From an uncultured archaeon (GTDB lineage Archaea; Aenigmatarchaeota; Aenigmatarchaeia; QMZP01; JACQNV01), in the NCBI GenBank assembly GCA_964476045.1, contig CAYYYJ010000001.1, positions 50,733-114,732 of the forward strand: DNA of 64,000 nt, in the 5' to 3' direction. Below the pieces are notes generated by a model. It was given only the letters and a program-made list of their open reading frames with translations. It searched no databases and was not told where the DNA came from. Within the stretch, counting starts at the first letter, position 1. The number at the start of each line of letters is the position of its first letter. This document shows, piece after piece, positions 4,574-33,404 of this stretch. The position numbers and the translations under genes are program-made.

Positions 4574-5923
4574 TTATAAACTTCCTCCAGAATTCCAGCT
4601 CTCTATCCTTTCAAATTTCTTTTTGCCTGGTTTTCTGGCCAATCTGGGGGCCTTGGGCTTGTATGAACTCATTATCTTTACAGGATAGTTAATTGGGTTT
4701 TTCAGAAGTATTTTCGGCTGGCCGCAGATTCTGTCAGGCTTGCAGACAGTATCATACCAGCCAACAGATTTCTCTGATGGACAGTTAGGCGGTGGAAGCG
4801 TTTTATCTTTATTCAAATGCCATCTCAGCTGGCTCCTGATATAGGATTCTGGGAGCGGGGGAGAATTTTTCTGGTTCCATTCATTTATGTATTTCTCTAC
4901 ATCTTGCTCTGTCCATTTGGCTGCTTTCAGGAAGTTTATCAGGATAAAGACCCCTCTTTTCCTTCCGTCAGCAACCCCAGCTGAGATGTTCTTTATGCAC
5001 GGAGGGAAGATATCCTGCTTTATCGAGGATGTGATCTCAACTCTCCTGCTCTCCTTTATTTTCTCTGACTTTTCTGTTTTATTATAAAAATCTAATGTCT
5101 CTCCGATAAGGAGGTCTAACTCGCCTTCTTCTCCTGTATCCAAAAACCCTACAGTAGCATCGATTTTTTCTGGCACAGCATCCTCTTGCCTGAACTCCTC
5201 TAAGTCCTCTAGATTAACAGGAAGTGAAACCCAAAATTTTTTCATGTTCAGTGAATACGGCAGCCTGAAAAGATGCCTTGCAGACAACAAGATAGGATCA
5301 ATATCTACAATTTCAAAAGGATTTACCCCATCGCGTGTCATTATTTTTCCGAGAGGCTTTGAAGCCTGCTGTGCTAGTTCCTCAGGACTGTATTTCTTCA
5401 GCAAGGCTTTTTCTAAATCATCTTTAACCCTGGTTTTGAGGAAAGAAGCAACCTTTCTCGCAAGATCTGGGAACTGGTTTACAGTGGATTTATAATCTAT
5501 TTTCTTGGGTAGAGATTTCCAACTCAGACCTAAATGGAATCCAGTTCCCCCTGTAAATTTTATTGAGAGATTATGGACGCCAAATTTTTTCAGCTCTTTA
5601 GCTATTACCAAAGCTGCAATCTTTCCGTGATCGAACAGATCGCAATCCAAATCAAGAACAATATCCCATCCAACTCTGAGATCATTATAATTCCCTTCTT
5701 TTATAGAAGATGGGTTTGACCAGTGCTCTAAAGATCCGTGAAGCTCTATCACGCCAGATTTTGCCATTGTTGTTATATCTGTGGGAAATATGAGCGTGCC
5801 CGGCCTTTTGCTGAAAGCGCCTGTTTCATAAACTCCTGCAACCTCCCTGTTTGCAGAGACCTTGAGAAGCGCCTGCTGGATGTCTGGCCTGGAATAATAA
5901 TCAAGAACCTGCTGCCTGTCCAT
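4574..5923 (-). CDS. priS: DNA primase catalytic subunit PriS fused to a PriL C-terminal-like Fe-S domain
   Basis: AEP catalytic motif GWDIVLDLDCD and FTGGTGFH; C-terminal extension with FPPC plus three further Cys (NCPS, VCKP, ICGQ) resembling the PriL-CTD 4Fe-4S domain; 449 aa versus about 330-350 for a stand-alone PriS. Confidence 0.75.
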   Translation of the reverse strand: MDRQQVLDYYSRPDIQQALLKVSANREVAGVYETGAFSKRPGTLIFPTDITTMAKSGVIELHGSLEHWSNPSSIKEGNYNDLRVGWDIVLDLDCDLFDHGKIAALVIAKELKKFGVHNLSIKFTGGTGFHLGLSWKSLPKKIDYKSTVNQFPDLARKVASFLKTRVKDDLEKALLKKYSPEELAQQASKPLGKIMTRDGVNPFEIVDIDPILLSARHLFRLPYSLNMKKFWVSLPVNLEDLEEFRQEDAVPEKIDATVGFLDTGEEGELDLLIGETLDFYNKTEKSEKIKESRRVEITSSIKQDIFPPCIKNISAGVADGRKRGVFILINFLKAAKWTEQDVEKYINEWNQKNSPPLPESYIRSQLRWHLNKDKTLPPPNCPSEKSVGWYDTVCKPDRICGQPKILLKNPINYPVKIMSSYKPKAPRLARKPGKKKFERIESWNSGGSL

Positions 5924-8891: not shown

Positions 8892-9440
8892 TTACTTCTC
8901 CAACTGGTCTAGTATTCCTACAATTTCGTCGAATTTGCTGAACCTGATAACATTGCTTCCCTTGACATTCCTGTTCCAAGGCCTGTCTTTGAGCAGAAGT
9001 ATTTTGTTTCCGTCTAGGCTCTGATGCAAATTCGGATTATCTTCTATATAAATGTCATAATCGAGTTCATGCTTATTCGAATGTATAATAAAATTATTGT
9101 GAGGCACTGTATTTTTCAAAATCCATTTATTCAGGACTTCTGGAACAGCTGTTGCAGTTACTATATCGACAGTATAATCCTGTTTTAATTCCGCGAGAAC
9201 AGATTTTACACTGGAATCAGTAAACTGGACATTCTCCCAGTTTTCTAGCCAGAGGTTATGTACAAGGTCTATGCAAGATTTTGTATCAAGTCCGAGCTCT
9301 CGCGCTTTCCCTTCAAATCCCCATCCTGTTATATCTTCAACTGAAAACTGTGTTCCAAATTTCGCGGAGATATGATCACAGAATATGGAATGTATATCTG
9401 CAATCGTCCCGTCAACATCGACGAGTATCTTTTGCCCCAT
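8892..9440 (-). CDS. HAD-superfamily 5'(3')-deoxyribonucleotidase-like hydrolase
   Basis: N-terminal HAD motif I ILVDVDGTIAD; size and layout like the NT5C family. Confidence 0.55.
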   Translation of the reverse strand: MGQKILVDVDGTIADIHSIFCDHISAKFGTQFSVEDITGWGFEGKARELGLDTKSCIDLVHNLWLENWENVQFTDSSVKSVLAELKQDYTVDIVTATAVPEVLNKWILKNTVPHNNFIIHSNKHELDYDIYIEDNPNLHQSLDGNKILLLKDRPWNRNVKGSNVIRFSKFDEIVGILDQLEK

Positions 9441-9524
9441 AGTTATTTTTTCTTTTCAGGATATAAATTAGCAAAGTGACGTACTCCAAATGAAAAGATA
9501 TTTAAGCATACTTTAAACTAGTAT

Positions 9525-10064
9525 TTGGATATGGCAACCGAAAGCTCGAGACTAGTTTTATTGGGCCAGAAAGATGGCATAAGGGAGCTTGTAGATCGAA
9601 GTCCTCCATACAGGCTACCAAGAGGCGCTGCTTCACTACGCGAAGTATTAGAAAGAAAAGATAGGCCTTATATGTCAGGGAGGCTTCTACTGGTAACAGA
9701 CGATTTTTACGGAAAATCAAGCCGTTTTTGGTACGAGCATCCAGCAGGGTTAATCGAAAGTGGTGTTATAGCTGATAGTGACACAGAGACTCACCGAGAT
9801 ATTCGAAATCCTTTTGATTATGTTCAAGCATTGTTGCTGAAGGCTGAAATAGAAGCTGATATAGAAATTAGAAATGAGGGAAAAGATGTCGTAGGTGTAT
9901 ATCTCTTGAGAAGCAATCCAAAAGACAAACTAACAATAGGTCTTGGTAGAATTATCAGGCCTCAACCCTCAGAAGGCCCGCCAGTTGGTATTGGCTATGT
10001 TCATTTAGAAAGGCCGGCTCCTGTAAAAGCAGGGGGAACACAAGGCGGTTGGGATCTGGATTGA
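9525..10064 (+). CDS. hypothetical protein (orphan ORF in a 660-bp gap)
   Basis: 179-aa ORF with Arg/Gly/Pro-rich composition; only sizeable ORF in the gap between two minus-strand housekeeping genes. Confidence 0.4.
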   Translation: MDMATESSRLVLLGQKDGIRELVDRSPPYRLPRGAASLREVLERKDRPYMSGRLLLVTDDFYGKSSRFWYEHPAGLIESGVIADSDTETHRDIRNPFDYVQALLLKAEIEADIEIRNEGKDVVGVYLLRSNPKDKLTIGLGRIIRPQPSEGPPVGIGYVHLERPAPVKAGGTQGGWDLD

Positions 10065-14341: not shown

Positions 14342-14893
14342 TTAAAGGAGCTGCCTCGTTATCTCGTAAAAAGTAATGTCCCCTTCATTGTCAACTATAG
14401 CCCAGAGCATGGTAGCCCTGATGGAGTGAGCTAACCTGACAGCCCGCGAGAGCTCTTGAAAACTGCAAGAATAATCTTCTGGGACGCAATATACAATCCA
14501 TCTTGTGTGCTCTGATGGGGCTTTTGGCCCCTTCTTAACAAGAACACCTCTTTGGTAAACGCGGAAATCGCAACCGAATTTGAAGCCTGTTTTGACAACT
14601 AAACCCCTTCCTCTGAGATCCCTGTAAACTGCGTATCTCTCGTGGAATCTTTTGTCCAATTCCGAGCAATATTCAAAAAATGCCTTAAAGCTCATCTTAG
14701 TTTTGCCTTTTTTTACAGAGAGTTTTTTCTTCTCAACTAAATAAGCAGCTTCGACCAGAGCGAGCTCGAGCCTGTCATCTATCCTTTTCCCATAGCTTCT
14801 TTGCTCTAGCTCATCAAAGCCTTTTGAGATAAATAACTTGTTTTCTAAAAGGGTCGCTTCTGGAACCTTTCTGATCTCGTTTTCGGTTGCCAT
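14342..14893 (-). CDS. endA: tRNA-splicing endonuclease (short, alpha-type)
   Basis: Catalytic C-terminal domain YAVYRDLRGRGLVVKTGFKFGCDFRVY; 183 aa. Confidence 0.85.
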   Translation of the reverse strand: MATENEIRKVPEATLLENKLFISKGFDELEQRSYGKRIDDRLELALVEAAYLVEKKKLSVKKGKTKMSFKAFFEYCSELDKRFHERYAVYRDLRGRGLVVKTGFKFGCDFRVYQRGVLVKKGPKAPSEHTRWIVYCVPEDYSCSFQELSRAVRLAHSIRATMLWAIVDNEGDITFYEITRQLL

Positions 14894-14902
14894 ATTACAC
14901 TA

Positions 14903-14913
14903 TTAAATATATA
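14903..14913 (+). promoter_or_regulatory. candidate TATA box (TTAAATATATA) for the tRNA-Asn/tRNA-Phe transcription unit
   Basis: AT-rich TATA-like element 32-42 nt upstream of the tRNA-Asn 5' end. Confidence 0.35.
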
Positions 14914-14944
14914 CTATCTAATTCTATAGATAACTTGCTTAAAA

Positions 14945-15264
14945 GCCTCGGTAGCTCAGCCATATACCCTCTTTCTTTCGAGGAAGGTTGGAAGTTGATT
15001 TGAGACCAATTGGAAAACAAATCAACTTCGTCCCTTTAAGAAAGAGCCTTATAACCCAGAAAGAAAGACGTTACAAGTGGATTATAAGTATGGAGCAACA
15101 GGTAGAGCGATCGACTGTTAATCGATAGGTCGGAGGTTCGAGTGTCTAGCCTTTCTTTAGAAAAGAAAGGCTACAGTACCCAAAGAAACTAGAATTCTTT
15201 GGCACTCGTTGAGATTCCAAAACTCAGAACCCAGAACTCAAGACTGATATTCCTCCCCGAGGCG
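14945..15264 (+). tRNA. tRNA-Asn (anticodon GTT) with two large introns at non-canonical positions (D-loop about 138 nt; T-loop about 108 nt)
   Basis: Acceptor GCCTCGG pairs perfectly with CCGAGGC 313 nt downstream. D-arm: GCTC AGCC | intron | GGTAGAGC. Anticodon arm ATCGA-CTGTTAA-TCGAT is contiguous. Variable loop AGGTC. T-stem GGAGG-TTCGAGT | intron | CCTCC. Discriminator G; no encoded CCA. Confidence 0.75.
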
Positions 15265-15274
15265 CTGAAGAGTC

Positions 15275-15313
15275 GAAACTGATTTTAAAGCAATTGCATC
15301 GAAAATCAGTTTC
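15275..15313 (+). repeat. perfect 12-bp inverted repeat hairpin in the tRNA-Asn/tRNA-Phe spacer
   Basis: GAAACTGATTTT ... AAAATCAGTTTC with a 15-nt loop, between the two tRNA genes. Confidence 0.5.
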
Positions 15314-15323
15314 CGTCTTTCAT

Positions 15324-15475
15324 GGGGGTGTAGCTCAGCACCCTTTTCCTAAAAGCGTGCACGGAAAAGGATGAGCATTGGGAGAGCACACGGCTGAAGA
15401 CGCACCTTTCTTTAAAGAAAGCTGCACCAAAGAATAGACACCGTGGTGTCGGGTGTTCGATCCACCCCACCCCCA
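15324..15475 (+). tRNA. tRNA-Phe (anticodon GAA) with two introns (D-loop about 37 nt; canonical 37/38 about 39 nt)
   Basis: Acceptor GGGGGTG/CACCCCC, discriminator A. D-arm: GCTC AGC | intron | ATTGGGAGAGC. Anticodon arm CACGG-CTGAAGA | intron | CCGTG. Variable loop GTGTC. T-arm GGGTG-TTCGATC-CACCC. Confidence 0.8.
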
Positions 15476-30855: not shown

Positions 30856-32091
30856 TTACACGTTCACAGGTATTGCAATTTTTAATTTCTCGACCATATC
30901 TAATTTCTCCCAGCTAAAACTATCTCTTCCGAAATGGCCGTATTTCGCAGTTTCTGCATACACTGGTTTTCCAGGACCTATCAACTTTAGCTTTTCTATT
31001 ATCCTGCCTGGTCTCCATGGGAAAACTTCTTTGACTTTCTCTGCTATCTCATGATCGGGGATCTGTCCTGTTCCAAAAGTATCAACTCTTATAGACAACG
31101 GATCTGGCTTCCCTATAACATAAGAAACCTGTATTTCGCACCTATCGGACAGACCGGAAGCTACAATATTTTTTGCAGCCCATCTGCATGCATAGGTTGC
31201 TGACCTGTCGACTTTTGACGGATCTTTTCCTGAAAAGGCGCCACCGCCATGCCTTCCCATTCCGCCGTATGTGTCCACGATTATTTTTCTTCCAGTTACG
31301 CCACTATCGCCTACTGGACCCCCTATAACAAATCTCCCTGTCCCGTTTATATGAAATTTTGTATCTTTATCCAACATCTCGTGCGGTATAACTTTCCTTA
31401 TAATTTCATCCTCTATCCCTTGTCTAATCTCTGAGTCTGTTGCGGACTCTAGGTGCTGCGCAGCTAAGACGACATGAATCACTTTTATAGGCTTGTTGTT
31501 TTCGTAGAGAACTGTAACTTGGGATTTTGCGTCAGGCCTAAGCCATGGAAGTATGCCATTTTTCCTGCACTGATCCAATTGCATAATAAGTTTGTGGGAT
31601 AAGTCAATCGGCAACGGCATCAAAGACGTTGTCTCATTTGTTGCATATCCGAACATCAGGCCTTGGTCTCCGGCGCCTTGCAAATCAAGGTCGGCTTTAT
31701 TTACGCCTTGCGCAATATCAACTGATTGTTTTCCCAATAGAGACAATACAAAGCAATTGGGGTCAAAACCGTCTCCATCCACATAGCCGATATCTTTTAT
31801 TGTTCTTCTGACTAAGTCTTCTGGATCAAATTCCGCATTAGTGGTGATCTCTCCCAATAAAACAATGGCCCCGTGCTTTTCAATGTGTTTCGCGTTCTCA
31901 ACTCCGAATAGTTTTACCAATGGCGCATATTTTTTATTATCAAAAATGCCTGCTTTAACGCCTGTCTCAACTGCAACTCTTGAATTCACATCGCCTAACA
32001 GGGCTGCATCCACTATTGAATCTGAGACCTGATCACAGACTTTATCTGGGTGTCCAGGAGAAACAGCCTCGGAAGTAAAATATGATTTCAT
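30856..32091 (-). CDS. metK: S-adenosylmethionine synthetase, bacterial/eukaryotic MetK type
   Basis: FTSEAVSPGHPDKVCDQVSDSIVDA and GGGAFSGKDPSKVDRSATYACRWAAKNIVASGL match MetK motifs, not the archaeal MAT family. Confidence 0.85.
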   Translation of the reverse strand: MKSYFTSEAVSPGHPDKVCDQVSDSIVDAALLGDVNSRVAVETGVKAGIFDNKKYAPLVKLFGVENAKHIEKHGAIVLLGEITTNAEFDPEDLVRRTIKDIGYVDGDGFDPNCFVLSLLGKQSVDIAQGVNKADLDLQGAGDQGLMFGYATNETTSLMPLPIDLSHKLIMQLDQCRKNGILPWLRPDAKSQVTVLYENNKPIKVIHVVLAAQHLESATDSEIRQGIEDEIIRKVIPHEMLDKDTKFHINGTGRFVIGGPVGDSGVTGRKIIVDTYGGMGRHGGGAFSGKDPSKVDRSATYACRWAAKNIVASGLSDRCEIQVSYVIGKPDPLSIRVDTFGTGQIPDHEIAEKVKEVFPWRPGRIIEKLKLIGPGKPVYAETAKYGHFGRDSFSWEKLDMVEKLKIAIPVNV

Positions 32092-33136: not shown

Positions 33137-33404
33137 CGGACCCGAAGGGATTTCCAGCTAGCCTTCTTTTTTCTAGTGCAGGTCTTTGCATCAGCAAAGA
33201 AGTGCCTTTTCTAAAGAAAAGGCTAGAATTTGAACCCTCGACCTTCAATCCAAAGTTTTCTTCCTTAGGACGGTGCTGCTCTGTCCAAAATGCTCAATTC
33301 TTTCTGGTGCAGCTCTTTCTTTTAAGGGACGAAGCTGATCTTTCAGTGATTGGTCAGGATCAACTTCCTTTCTTCCTCAGAAAGAGGTGCTGAGCTACGG
33401 GCCC
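33137..33404 (-). tRNA. tRNA-Ala-like gene with multiple introns; anticodon arm not resolved by eye (possibly a third intron or a pseudogene)
   Basis: Minus strand: acceptor GGGCCCG-TA-GCTC-AGC at the 5' end pairs with CGGGTCC plus G at the 3' end, including a G3:U70 pair (Ala identity). T-arm GAGGG-TTCAAAT | intron | CCCTT. D-loop and T-loop insertions share modules with the tRNA-Asn introns. Confidence 0.45.

Follow-up and report, generated by a model that had tools for sequence, protein, structure and literature searches.

Families of hairpin repeats form nested introns in tRNA genes of a DPANN archaeon, and one of them also occurs outside tRNA genes in related genomes

The 64 000 nt stretch of archaeal DNA analysed here (contig CAYYYJ010000001.1, positions 50 733 to 114 732; referred to below as the window and numbered from its first base) includes three tRNA genes, for tRNA-Asn(GTT), tRNA-Phe(GAA) and tRNA-Arg(CCT), which were parsed by hand and carry seven introns in total. 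At least three families of hairpin, designated H1, H2 and H3, make up these introns, and they lie partly one inside another. The explanation that we favour, and consider probable, is that the modules are mobile hairpin elements which are kept in tRNA genes because a tRNA-splicing endonuclease of broad specificity, EndA, splices them out. The homology between modules, their dispersal and nesting, presence/absence polymorphism in relatives, restored cloverleaves, the geometry of the junctions and an adjacent EndA gene are all observed directly.

tRNA genes and their introns

No tRNA was predicted in the raw window by ARAGORN, with or without its intron options, and Rfam searches of the whole window, at the gathering score and at E <=10, recovered neither a tRNA nor any other RNA family. 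When the introns were excised by hand, ARAGORN called tRNA-Asn(gtt), tRNA-Phe(gaa) and tRNA-Arg(cct), with the cloverleaves restored, and orthologues that lack individual introns have the predicted mature sequence. Three of the seven introns are in the D-loop at 15/16 (139, 40 and 100 nt), two are in the T-loop at 59/60 (108 and 78 nt), one is at 37/38 (40 nt) and one is in the anticodon stem at 40/41 (15 nt).

The tRNA-Asn gene (14945–15264, + strand, 320 nt) contains two introns and was called by ARAGORN only after both had been removed. The 139 nt D-loop intron Asn-I1 (14960–15098) has the junction GCTC-AGC...TATG-GAGC-AAC. Its outer hairpin frame, with a 5′ arm ATATACCCTCTTTCTTTC (14962–14979) and a 3′ arm TAAGAAAGAGCCTTATAACCCAGAAAGAAAGACGTTACAAG (15037–15077) that are predicted to pair and are kept in loci L077 and L046, encloses an H3 core hairpin, GAGGAAGG..GGAAGTTGAT..ATCAACTTCGTCCCTT (14980–15036), with a homologue at 33324–33378. 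Removal of the 108 nt T-loop intron Asn-I2 (15143–15250, ends ±1 nt), which starts with the H2 hairpin TCTAGCCTTTCTTTAGAAAAGAAAGGCTACAGTACCCAAAGAAAC (15145–15189), restores the T arm. The tRNA-Phe gene (15324–15475, + strand) begins 59 nt past tRNA-Asn and includes two 40 nt introns; ARAGORN called it on the spliced sequence. Phe-I1 (15339–15378) is a D-loop intron of degenerate H1 type with the mimic GATGAGCAT at its end, and Phe-I2 (15400–15439), in the anticodon loop at the canonical 37/38 position, is a miniature H1-type hairpin, GCAC-CTTTCTTT-AAAGAAAG-CTGCACCAAAGAAT.

The tRNA-Arg gene (33137–33404, − strand), with three introns, has a single cloverleaf solution and was likewise called on the spliced sequence. 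Arg-I1 (33290–33389), the 100 nt D-loop intron, has an H1-type frame, CACCTCTTTCT ... AAAGAAAGAGCTGCACCAGAAAGAATTGAGCAT, around the H3 core at 33324–33378. The 15 nt Arg-I2 (33248–33262) lies in the 3′ strand of the anticodon stem, and the 78 nt T-loop intron Arg-I3 (33151–33228) contains an H2 hairpin and a canonical H1 copy (33170–33206). In an exhaustive single-deletion search for a legal anticodon arm, Arg(CCT) was the sole solution, and it implies the 15 nt intron. The orthologue in L077, found via the neighbouring gene MinD (89 % identical), does not contain Arg-I2 and its anticodon arm is exactly as predicted.

A preliminary description of the window, made from the sequence alone, had labelled this gene as tRNA-Ala-like. 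That label stems from G3:U70, the base pair known classically as the identity element for alanine. The cloverleaf, ARAGORN and the L077 orthologue all give Arg(CCT), and the label is rejected. Both the G3:U70 pair and a G at position 32 are kept in L077, and L079 retains G3:U70.

Other identities for the introns were considered. Small RNAs of the C/D box type are encoded in the tRNA-Trp introns of some euryarchaea, and are recognized by a C box (RUGAUGA), a D box (CUGA) and a kink-turn. No C box was seen in the introns by inspection and there was no Rfam match to a small nucleolar or other small RNA in the window; with the boxes absent and Rfam silent, a C/D box RNA or kink-turn was rejected as the identity of the H3 core. 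There was also no Rfam match in the window to group I, group II or homing-endonuclease introns, and as the introns are only 15–139 nt there is no space for an intron-encoded open reading frame (ORF).

Similarity among the introns in the window

The introns were compared using Smith-Waterman gapped local alignment, with scores judged against 1000 dinucleotide-preserving shuffles. The highest score was for the two H3-bearing D-loop introns, Asn-I1 and Arg-I1 (z=18.4), followed by Phe-I2 with Arg-I1 (z=7.5) and Asn-I2 with Arg-I3 (z=7.1), and none of the shuffles equalled any of these three. For Asn-I2 with Phe-I2 (z=6.0) a single shuffle did so, and Arg-I1 with Arg-I3 gave z=3.6. The largest common block, absent from the preliminary description, is the 55–57 nt hairpin core of the Asn and Arg D-loop introns (14980–15036 and 33324–33378). 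Using blastn-short, the window introns gave only marginal, fragmentary matches, with short ones of E ~1 scattered across the window.

These scores (z from 6 to 18), the three hairpin families and their nesting support the earlier proposal, in which reusable modules make up the introns. The inverted repeat reported for the Asn D-loop, Asn T-loop and Phe anticodon introns needs a more qualified statement. All of the quoted strings are where they were said to be, namely CTTTCTTT at 14971 (+) with its complement at 15060–15067 in Asn-I1, TAGCCTTTCTTTAGAAAAGAAAGGCTA at 15147–15173 in Asn-I2 and CTTTCTTTAAAGAAAG at 15406–15421 in the Phe anticodon intron. A search with the literal consensus, GCTGCACCARARAAAGAAT, found nothing, even when 3 mismatches were tolerated; the homology behind it is seen when two small gaps are introduced (28 of 33 aligned columns identical). 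Nor do the arms of Asn-I1 pair as was described, as the predicted fold joins the 5′ arm CTCTTTCTT to AAGAAAGAG (~15040–15048) and not to GAAAGAAAG at 15059. The module said to be common to the Phe anticodon intron and the gene at 33.3 kb, GCTGCACCA, is present in both, at 15421 (+) and 33305–33313 (−), though the latter gene is Arg(CCT) rather than Ala.

The possibility that the resemblance is due to chance, between AT-rich, low-complexity polypyrimidine and polypurine tracts, has to be considered as the arms are simple CTTTCTTT and AAAGAAAG tracts and the blastn matches with E ~1 are scattered. We give this explanation practically no weight. The observed scores are far above those of the dinucleotide shuffles, which never matched five of the intron pairs, and the shared blocks hold non-repetitive stretches, GGAAGTTGAT, CTTCGTCCCTT and GGCTACAGTACCCAAAG. 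The inverted repeat CTTTCTTT-N0-30-AAAGAAAG occurs twice in the 64 kb, compared with 0.01 expected, and none of 100 shuffles reached 2; the window has 19 CTTTCTTT octamers, and 7 of them are within the ~0.74 kb of tRNA genes. Together with the 58 exact matches to the H1 pattern described below, for which less than one was expected, this refutes the low-complexity explanation.

Hairpin families and nesting

H1 is a hairpin of 33–50 nt with the form GCACTTCTTT-hairpin-AAAGACCTGCACTAGAAA, that is, GCA-CTTCTTT(T), a variable distal stem and loop, and (A)AAAGACCTGCACTAGAAA. The canonical copy in the window, at 33170–33206 in Arg-I3, scored 53.8 bits (E=4e-19) with the H1 covariance model, R1. Phe-I2 matched over the full model length with 12.2 bits (E=0.03), which identifies it as a degenerate H1. 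Further degenerate relatives in the window are the outer frame of Arg-I1 and, via its pairwise similarity to D-loop introns from other genomes, Phe-I1. The distal stem of H1 covaries; pair 13–30 is GC in 12 copies, CG in 8, UA in 6 and AU in 3, and none of 500 shuffles reached the covariation score. In the basal helix, GCA/UGC is replaced by CGA/UCG in a few divergent copies, including those in locus L054. Stem mismatches of the G:U and A:C types are about equally frequent (15 and 9, respectively), and because the numbers are similar no strand-specific selection on the RNA is visible. The asymmetry was considered as a means of discriminating between RNA-level and DNA-level selection, and was uninformative.

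H2, AGCCTTTCTTT...AAAGAAAGGCTAYAGTACCCAAAGAAA, opens the T-loop introns of both tRNA-Asn and tRNA-Arg. H3 is the 55–57 nt core, GAGGAAG..GGAAGTTGAT..loop..ATCARCTTCGTCCCTT, which the D-loop introns of tRNA-Asn and tRNA-Arg have in common. The three copies of H3 (two in the window and one in L065) form a three-helix hairpin in which 5 pairs stay paired after two-sided changes.

The modular look of the introns is due to nested insertion, of which there are three cases. Arg-I3 is made up of an H2 hairpin of the Asn-I2 type with an H1 copy between TAGAAAA repeats. The frame of Asn-I1, ATATACCCTYTCTYTT ... AAGAGAAAGCCTTATAACCCA, holds H3 in the window and has no core in the D-loop intron of the L077 tRNA-Arg, and in L046 two tandem H1 copies replace the core (z=12.8). 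The core within the H1-type frame of Arg-I1 is H3 in the window and an unrelated sequence in the orthologue from L079.

A single type of module can also be found at several tRNA positions. H1 is in the D-loop (Arg-I1), at 37/38 (Phe-I2) and in the T-loop (Arg-I3). H3 is in the D-loop in the window and in the T-loop in L065, and H2 is in the T-loop in the window and in L020 and in the D-loop in L075.

Intron turnover among orthologues

The order EndA, tRNA-Asn, tRNA-Phe is kept in 6 relatives, with EndA 74–86 % identical to that of the window. When the window is compared with L009, the block of three genes is inverted relative to its neighbours. Position 15/16 of tRNA-Asn is vacant in three relatives (L012, L015 and L076) and occupied in four genomes, including the window, where the 139 nt H3-bearing intron is accompanied by the 108 nt T-loop intron. 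The introns at this position in L009 (53 nt, H1-like), L074 (52 nt, H1-like) and L075 (~100 nt, H2) are unrelated to Asn-I1. Elsewhere in the gene, L009 has a different T-loop intron, L074 has none, L075 and L012 each have an intron in the anticodon stem, and L076 has introns in the D-stem and the anticodon stem. L015 has introns in the D-stem and anticodon stem and a T-loop intron that is near-identical to Asn-I2, a counterpart of which is absent from L012, L074, L075 and L076.

For tRNA-Phe, no D-loop intron was found in any of the relatives' orthologues examined. Instead, the relatives carry introns at 37/38, which are short and unrelated, as well as in the anticodon stem and following position 43; a T-arm intron is also present in every one except L009. 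The tRNA-Arg genes of the window and L077 differ at every intron, with both Arg-I2 and Arg-I3 absent from L077. In L012, a 239 aa ORF (8991–9710) with a weak match to LAGLIDADG_3 lies directly downstream of tRNA-Phe; the window does not include it.

Copies of the modules in other genomes

Loci were fetched from relatives and from metagenomic contigs (designated with the prefix L; 333 kb in all). A scan of metagenomes with an H1 pattern of ~24 effective bases, for which we estimate that fewer than about one match would arise by chance, identified 58 loci with exact matches, bringing the number of copies to 68 when the window and the earlier loci are counted. The trinucleotide GCA, which was not demanded by the search, directly precedes the pattern in 66 of the 68, and model R1 found 85 matches in the fetched loci. 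The copies are 33–50 nt, occur in both orientations relative to the neighbouring genes, and in some loci form tandem arrays. The pattern was not found in viral contigs.

The preliminary description had also suggested that the modules propagate or recombine between tRNA genes, and this is supported by their recurrence in other tRNAs and by strong polymorphism of the introns among relatives (EndA 74–86 % or MinD 78–89 % identical to those of the window). H1 forms the body of D-loop introns in tRNA-Ile, tRNA-Thr (CGT) and tRNA-Tyr, all confirmed by ARAGORN after excision, and of D-loop introns in two more tRNAs (L065 and L069) for which there was no ARAGORN call. It is also in anticodon-arm or T-loop introns of metagenomic tRNAs that were identified by reading as Leu, Gly and Val. 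The frame of Arg-I1 has homologues in D-loop introns of H1 type, those of tRNA-Tyr in L060 (z=12.9) and L051 (z=10.9). Phe-I1 resembles the D-loop introns of tRNA-Asn in L074 (z=9.1) and L009 (z=7.5) and of tRNA-Ile in L022 (z=5.3); model R1 is strict and misses the degenerate introns of L009 and L074, for which the kinship to H1 comes from pairwise scores only.

H2 and H3 are also found elsewhere. The H3-bearing part of Asn-I1 and the T-loop intron of the L065 tRNA-Thr share 62 of 76 positions (z=23). Relatives of Asn-I2 with H2 are the T-loop intron of the L020 tRNA-Gly (z=14.6) and the D-loop intron of the L075 tRNA-Asn (z=11.9), and these two are identical to one another at 63 of 73 positions (z=28). 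A search of the contigs of GTDB representatives with a pattern for the H3 core (GAGGAAGN{2,5}GGAAGN{20,50}CTTCGTCCCTT) gave 6 matches, 5 in bacteria and 1 in a haloarchaeon, which look like chance. Evidently, the GTDB representatives lack either the source species or the copies of H3 that it carries.

H1 is not confined to introns. It directly follows the 3′ end of a tRNA in L048 (tRNA, 5408–5482; H1, 5368–5407) and lies antisense against tRNA 5′ ends, partly as tandem arrays, in L029 and L033. In locus L054, an archaeal 23S rRNA gene carries, beside the conserved AAGGUAGCG, an insert of ~88 nt that consists of an inverted pair of H1-type hairpins (2589–2675), and the exon bases at the flanks of this insert pair in the predicted fold. 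A 36 nt, stop-free copy lies in frame within an ORF of the glutamyl-tRNA synthetase (GluRS) type in L041 (2355–2391), and would add STSLLRQRPALE just before the HIGH-motif domain.

In several loci, H1 is precisely between a GGAGG-like Shine-Dalgarno sequence and the start codon (L024, 544–587; L042, 981–1026; L044, 403–448; L045, 112–157; L019, 389–434; L037, 253–297). The copy in the leader of EndA in L009 (9946–9982) has the same location and is in the sense orientation; most other leader copies are antisense. At least 7 leaders carry H1 antisense to the adjacent gene, and spacers have it in both orientations. In the predicted fold, the base of a leader hairpin is ~9 nt from the AUG, and either the hairpin might link the Shine-Dalgarno sequence to the start codon, or the element might be excised from the mRNA.

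Several further features of these loci were recorded. Where H1 follows a complete tRNA gene it begins 0–1 nt past the discriminator base (L048, 5368–5407; L016, 1651–1691; L018, 819–865), and the terminal GCA of such tRNAs is often the first bases of the adjoining H1. In L067, the 3′ end of a tRNA-Leu is followed by a bare GCACTAGAAA tail with the hairpin absent, which may be the footprint of a deletion between two GCAC repeats. In the tandem arrays of L029 (1094–1329), L070 (1–123) and L033 (207–301), H1 alternates with a second small hairpin, GGCGTTGTTACGCC or GCGCTATAAGCGC, with identical spacers and a period of 52–54 nt. CRISPR arrays were considered for L029 and L070 and rejected as the 'spacers' are identical, making these tandem repeats. 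Two independent Logan assemblies from the same population (L001 and L002, corresponding to 14894–14992 of the window) both stop at 14992 in Asn-I1, where the inner stem of H3 starts, and L011 likewise begins inside an H1 pair upstream of EndA. The shared break points suggest assembly breaks induced by repeats or polymorphism.

Splice junctions and the splicing endonuclease

The gene for EndA (183 aa; 14342–14893, − strand; Pfam tRNA_int_endo_N and tRNA_int_endo) is divergent from tRNA-Asn, with 51 nt between them. It adjoins two tRNA genes (14945–15475, + strand) that are among the most intron-laden. Between a conserved Tyr and a conserved His in its catalytic domain, both of which align with those of solved EndAs, the enzyme has an insertion of 6 residues, rich in Lys (KKGPKAPS), relative to the EndA of Methanocaldococcus jannaschii. 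At this site, the Nanoarchaeum equitans alpha subunit aligns without a gap, ARMAN-2 EndA has a one-residue gap and Methanopyrus kandleri EndA does not contain the insertion. EndAs of the alpha4 type from DPANN archaea that have an extra loop, 'L3', have been associated with more disrupted tRNA genes and incomplete tRNA predictions (Kaneta 2018, PMC5829648). The insertion seen here may be a loop of the kind tied in publications to broad specificity and to disrupted tRNA genes in DPANN archaea, a putative counterpart of 'L3', and from its Pfam domains and the aligned Tyr and His the enzyme is probably able to cut junction motifs such as those described below.

The junctions fold into motifs that resemble a bulge-helix-bulge (BHB). 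By inspection, all three D-loop introns have GCTC-AGC...GAGC-AWY, with a 4 bp helix, two 3 nt bulges and an inner intron helix. The helix tracks the local exon sequence, being GCTC/GAGC in the window, TCTA/TAGA in L052 and TCAG/CTGA in L077, where the D-loop insertion lies 2 nt further 3′. In T-loop introns, the T stem takes the role that the anticodon stem has at a BHB. The junction of Arg-I3 is near-canonical, with the T stem GAGGG/CCCTT, the helix TTCA/TGGA and 3 nt bulges AAT and AAT, placing the splice at 59/60.

Removal of the introns may be envisaged as follows. The long hairpin of the intron would bring its ends together. At the D-loop site, the 3′ end of the intron, which copies the 3′ strand of the D-stem (GAGC), would pair with exon GCTC, and at the T-loop site the T stem and TTCR paired to intron nucleotides would make up a near-canonical BHB. 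EndA would then cut both bulges and RNA ligase would join the exons. The bodies of the introns would be copies of the dispersed hairpin repeats H1, H2 and H3, which insert into DNA, enter different tRNA genes and positions (and, in the case of H1, also rRNA, leaders, spacers and an ORF) and insert into each other to give nested, modular introns. An insertion in a tRNA gene would survive only where the element and its flanks form a motif acceptable to EndA, making the elements BHB 'introners'.

Flanking duplications and modes of spread

Repeats of at least 10 nt abut the junctions of H1 in four independent copies, in L032 (15 nt), L064 (14 nt), L050 (19 nt) and L061 (28 nt). In controls with mismatched flanks, repeats of this length were found in 0.9 %, an enrichment at H1 of ~10-fold. 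Shorter repeats are at the junctions in L071, L049 and L066, and overall ~7 of 58 H1 copies have a repeat of 7–28 nt. A 10 nt duplication also surrounds an H2-type insertion in L065. The duplications are located at L032, 210–242; L064, 460–505; L050, 6967–7016; L061, 2217–2255; and L066, 1517–1558. Those in L061 and L066 span the start codon and first codons of the downstream gene, and the one in L032, as well as the shorter one in L049, covers a TATA-like box.

Insertion at the DNA level is indicated by these target duplications, by the presence of both orientations outside tRNA genes, by the tandem arrays and by the insertions in rRNA and in an ORF. We infer from these sequence comparisons that H1 moves as DNA, and the direction of change, as gain rather than loss or the reverse, is also a reading of the sequences. 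A more specific version of the favoured explanation is that H1, with H2 and H3, is an archaeal 'introner', a set of tiny non-autonomous DNA elements whose insertion in any transcribed gene, be it for a tRNA, for rRNA, in an mRNA leader or even in an ORF, is neutralized by EndA and ligase or by the hairpin itself. This version is put forward tentatively and may well not hold.

A number of observations do not fit easily with mobile DNA elements that are spliced out by EndA. Most H1 copies have no flanking duplication, and the lengths found, 7 to 28 nt, are not fixed, unlike those made by a classical transposase. No transposase partner, whether IS or RAYT, turned up, though no systematic search was made and the ORFs of the H1 loci were not screened. 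Inside tRNA genes, H1 is sense-oriented in every copy for which the orientation can be judged, which requires either selection for formation of a BHB or an RNA-level route, and the precision with which it sits at tRNA ends, or in the gap from Shine-Dalgarno sequence to ATG, is suspicious. With model R1, H1-type sequences in the window are inside the three tRNA genes only, and among the metagenomic contigs a single one, from the same sample, could be placed taxonomically (MinD 89 % identical to that of the window); using tblastn, the window proteins had almost no orthologues in the metagenomic loci, and the contigs were not placed in that way. The junctions are also imperfect. Those in the D-loop do not include the outer helix of a BHB and represent a relaxed form, the central helices of Asn-I2 and Phe-I2 each have 3 of 4 pairs, and at Arg-I2 inspection gave no clear motif. 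Splicing of the introns is itself predicted from the junction geometry and the established biology of EndA.

The sense orientation in tRNA genes, and the location of elements where a BHB can form, would be expected if spread occurred only at the RNA level, with excised BHB introns re-entering RNAs by a reversed endonuclease and ligase reaction or by recombination of complementary DNA. The modules would then travel as introns, in line with a loose suggestion made for 'intron transposition' in Thermoproteales. In the review of Yoshihisa (PMC4090602), the mechanism of transposition is described as unknown and it is suggested that the BHB may specify targets. We consider this route unlikely as the sole one. 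It does not account for the antisense H1 in at least 7 leaders and beside tRNA 5′ ends, for tandem arrays with identical spacers or for the duplications of target DNA at some copies, and no reverse transcriptase turned up, though no search was aimed at one. Alternatively, the hairpins could be functional RNA modules, serving as a scaffold or protein site for folding, splicing, processing or control of translation, with the similarity maintained by selection and gene conversion. Conservation of the hairpin pairing with compensatory changes is consistent with such a role, as are the exact placement of H1 in the gap between Shine-Dalgarno sequence and start codon of several genes and at tRNA ends, and predicted pre-tRNA folds that are more stable than those of shuffles (z=−2.9 to −4.7). 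This seems improbable given that orthologous tRNAs exist with or without the modules, or with other modules at the same site, that both orientations occur, that there is no Rfam family or C/D box or kink-turn signature, and that G:U and A:C mismatches are similar in number (15 vs 9). The in-frame copy in an ORF and the copy in rRNA also look like tolerated insertions. The rarity and variable length of the duplications, the matter of the transposase partner, the sense bias in tRNA genes, the exact placement and the G:U and A:C counts are the reasons for leaving some probability with RNA-level spread and with functional modules.

Relationship to known systems

Most named homologues of EndA and of MinD carry the label Candidatus Aenigmarchaeota or Aenigmatarchaeota, and on this basis the window is from a DPANN archaeon. 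The window also encodes an S-adenosylmethionine synthetase of the bacterial/eukaryotic MetK type (30856–32091, − strand; Pfam S-AdoMet_synt N, M and C); in most archaea this reaction is catalysed by a distinct enzyme of archaeal type.

Searches of the literature for tRNA introns in Aenigmarchaeota or other DPANN archaea, for transposable elements of the miniature inverted-repeat type (MITEs) together with tRNA introns, and for BHB together with repeats or target duplications found nothing describing these modules. The sole related publication found proposes, in generic terms and from four archaeal introns, that transposons gave rise to introns (PMC11782384).

In the Thermoproteales, large-scale transposition of tRNA introns has been inferred (Fujishima 2010, Mol Biol Evol 27:2233, as summarized in PMC4090602 and PMC4033280). 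As far as those summaries go, the features in common are similar introns across tRNA identities and positions, rapid turnover, dependence on the BHB and a relaxed endonuclease, and the introns described here are a phenomenon of this kind, in another phylum. Judged from the same summaries, they differ in that the host belongs to the DPANN/Aenigmarchaeota, with ~40 % GC, that EndA is of a single-subunit type with a putative DPANN-type loop and not the crenarchaeal (alpha-beta)2 form, and that the window introns are far longer (up to 139 nt), composite and nested. Modules outside tRNA genes with flanking duplications are not reported for Thermoproteales in the two summaries.

Work on DPANN archaea with disrupted tRNA genes and a loop-bearing alpha4 or epsilon2 EndA (PMC3239211, PMC3488258, PMC5829648) resembles the present case in the DPANN host, the insertion in EndA and the tRNA genes missed by standard tools, and Kaneta et al. 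anticipated that many tRNA genes go unpredicted by such tools (PMC5829648). However, those studies (Fujishima 2011, PMC3239211; Hirata 2012, PMC3488258; and PMC5829648) treat enzyme architecture and the number of disrupted genes, and not families of introns, modularity or dispersed hairpins.

The MITE-like introners of eukaryotes (PMC12130899, PMC4457414) are likewise short, non-coding and multi-copy, are tolerated through host splicing, and give rise to bursts of intron gain and to presence/absence polymorphism. They depend on the spliceosome rather than on EndA acting at a BHB, and belong to another domain of life with other sequences. Eukaryotic introners (PMC12130899) are the nearest functional analogue, by analogy and not by membership.

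The repetitive extragenic palindromic (REP) sequences, bacterial interspersed mosaic elements (BIMEs) and MITEs of prokaryotes (PMC3733652, PMC10969869) share with H1 (35–50 nt) an imperfectly palindromic structure whose foot sequences are conserved, numerous copies with both orientations represented, tandem arrays and a location mostly in spacers. H1 differs in its conserved single-stranded 3′ tail, ACTAGAAA, in the variable length of its duplications and in its occurrence in archaea and, as introns, inside tRNA genes. It also does not contain the GTAG/CGTC tag of REP sequences. The palindromic elements of Rickettsia (RPEs) occur in frame in ORFs and in RNA genes. H1 resembles them in having one copy in frame in an ORF (GluRS) and others in RNA genes.

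Implications

Since standard finders detect none of the three tRNA genes in this 64 kb window, the tRNA complements of Aenigmarchaeota and other DPANN metagenome assemblies are likely to be under-called, and judgements of translation capacity and completeness may be off. How archaea come by BHB introns is now a testable question. A concrete family, defined by its sequence, can be traced from spacers, leaders and rRNA into tRNA genes, and it displays nesting, orthologous sites that are occupied in some genomes and vacant in others, and target duplications at some copies. The scatter of H1 outside tRNA genes in related genomes suggests that archaea may acquire introns from small mobile DNA. If the modules are indeed introners, they would provide the long-missing account of how BHB introns are gained in archaea, and the accumulation of disrupted tRNA genes in lineages with endonucleases of relaxed specificity would be explained as well.

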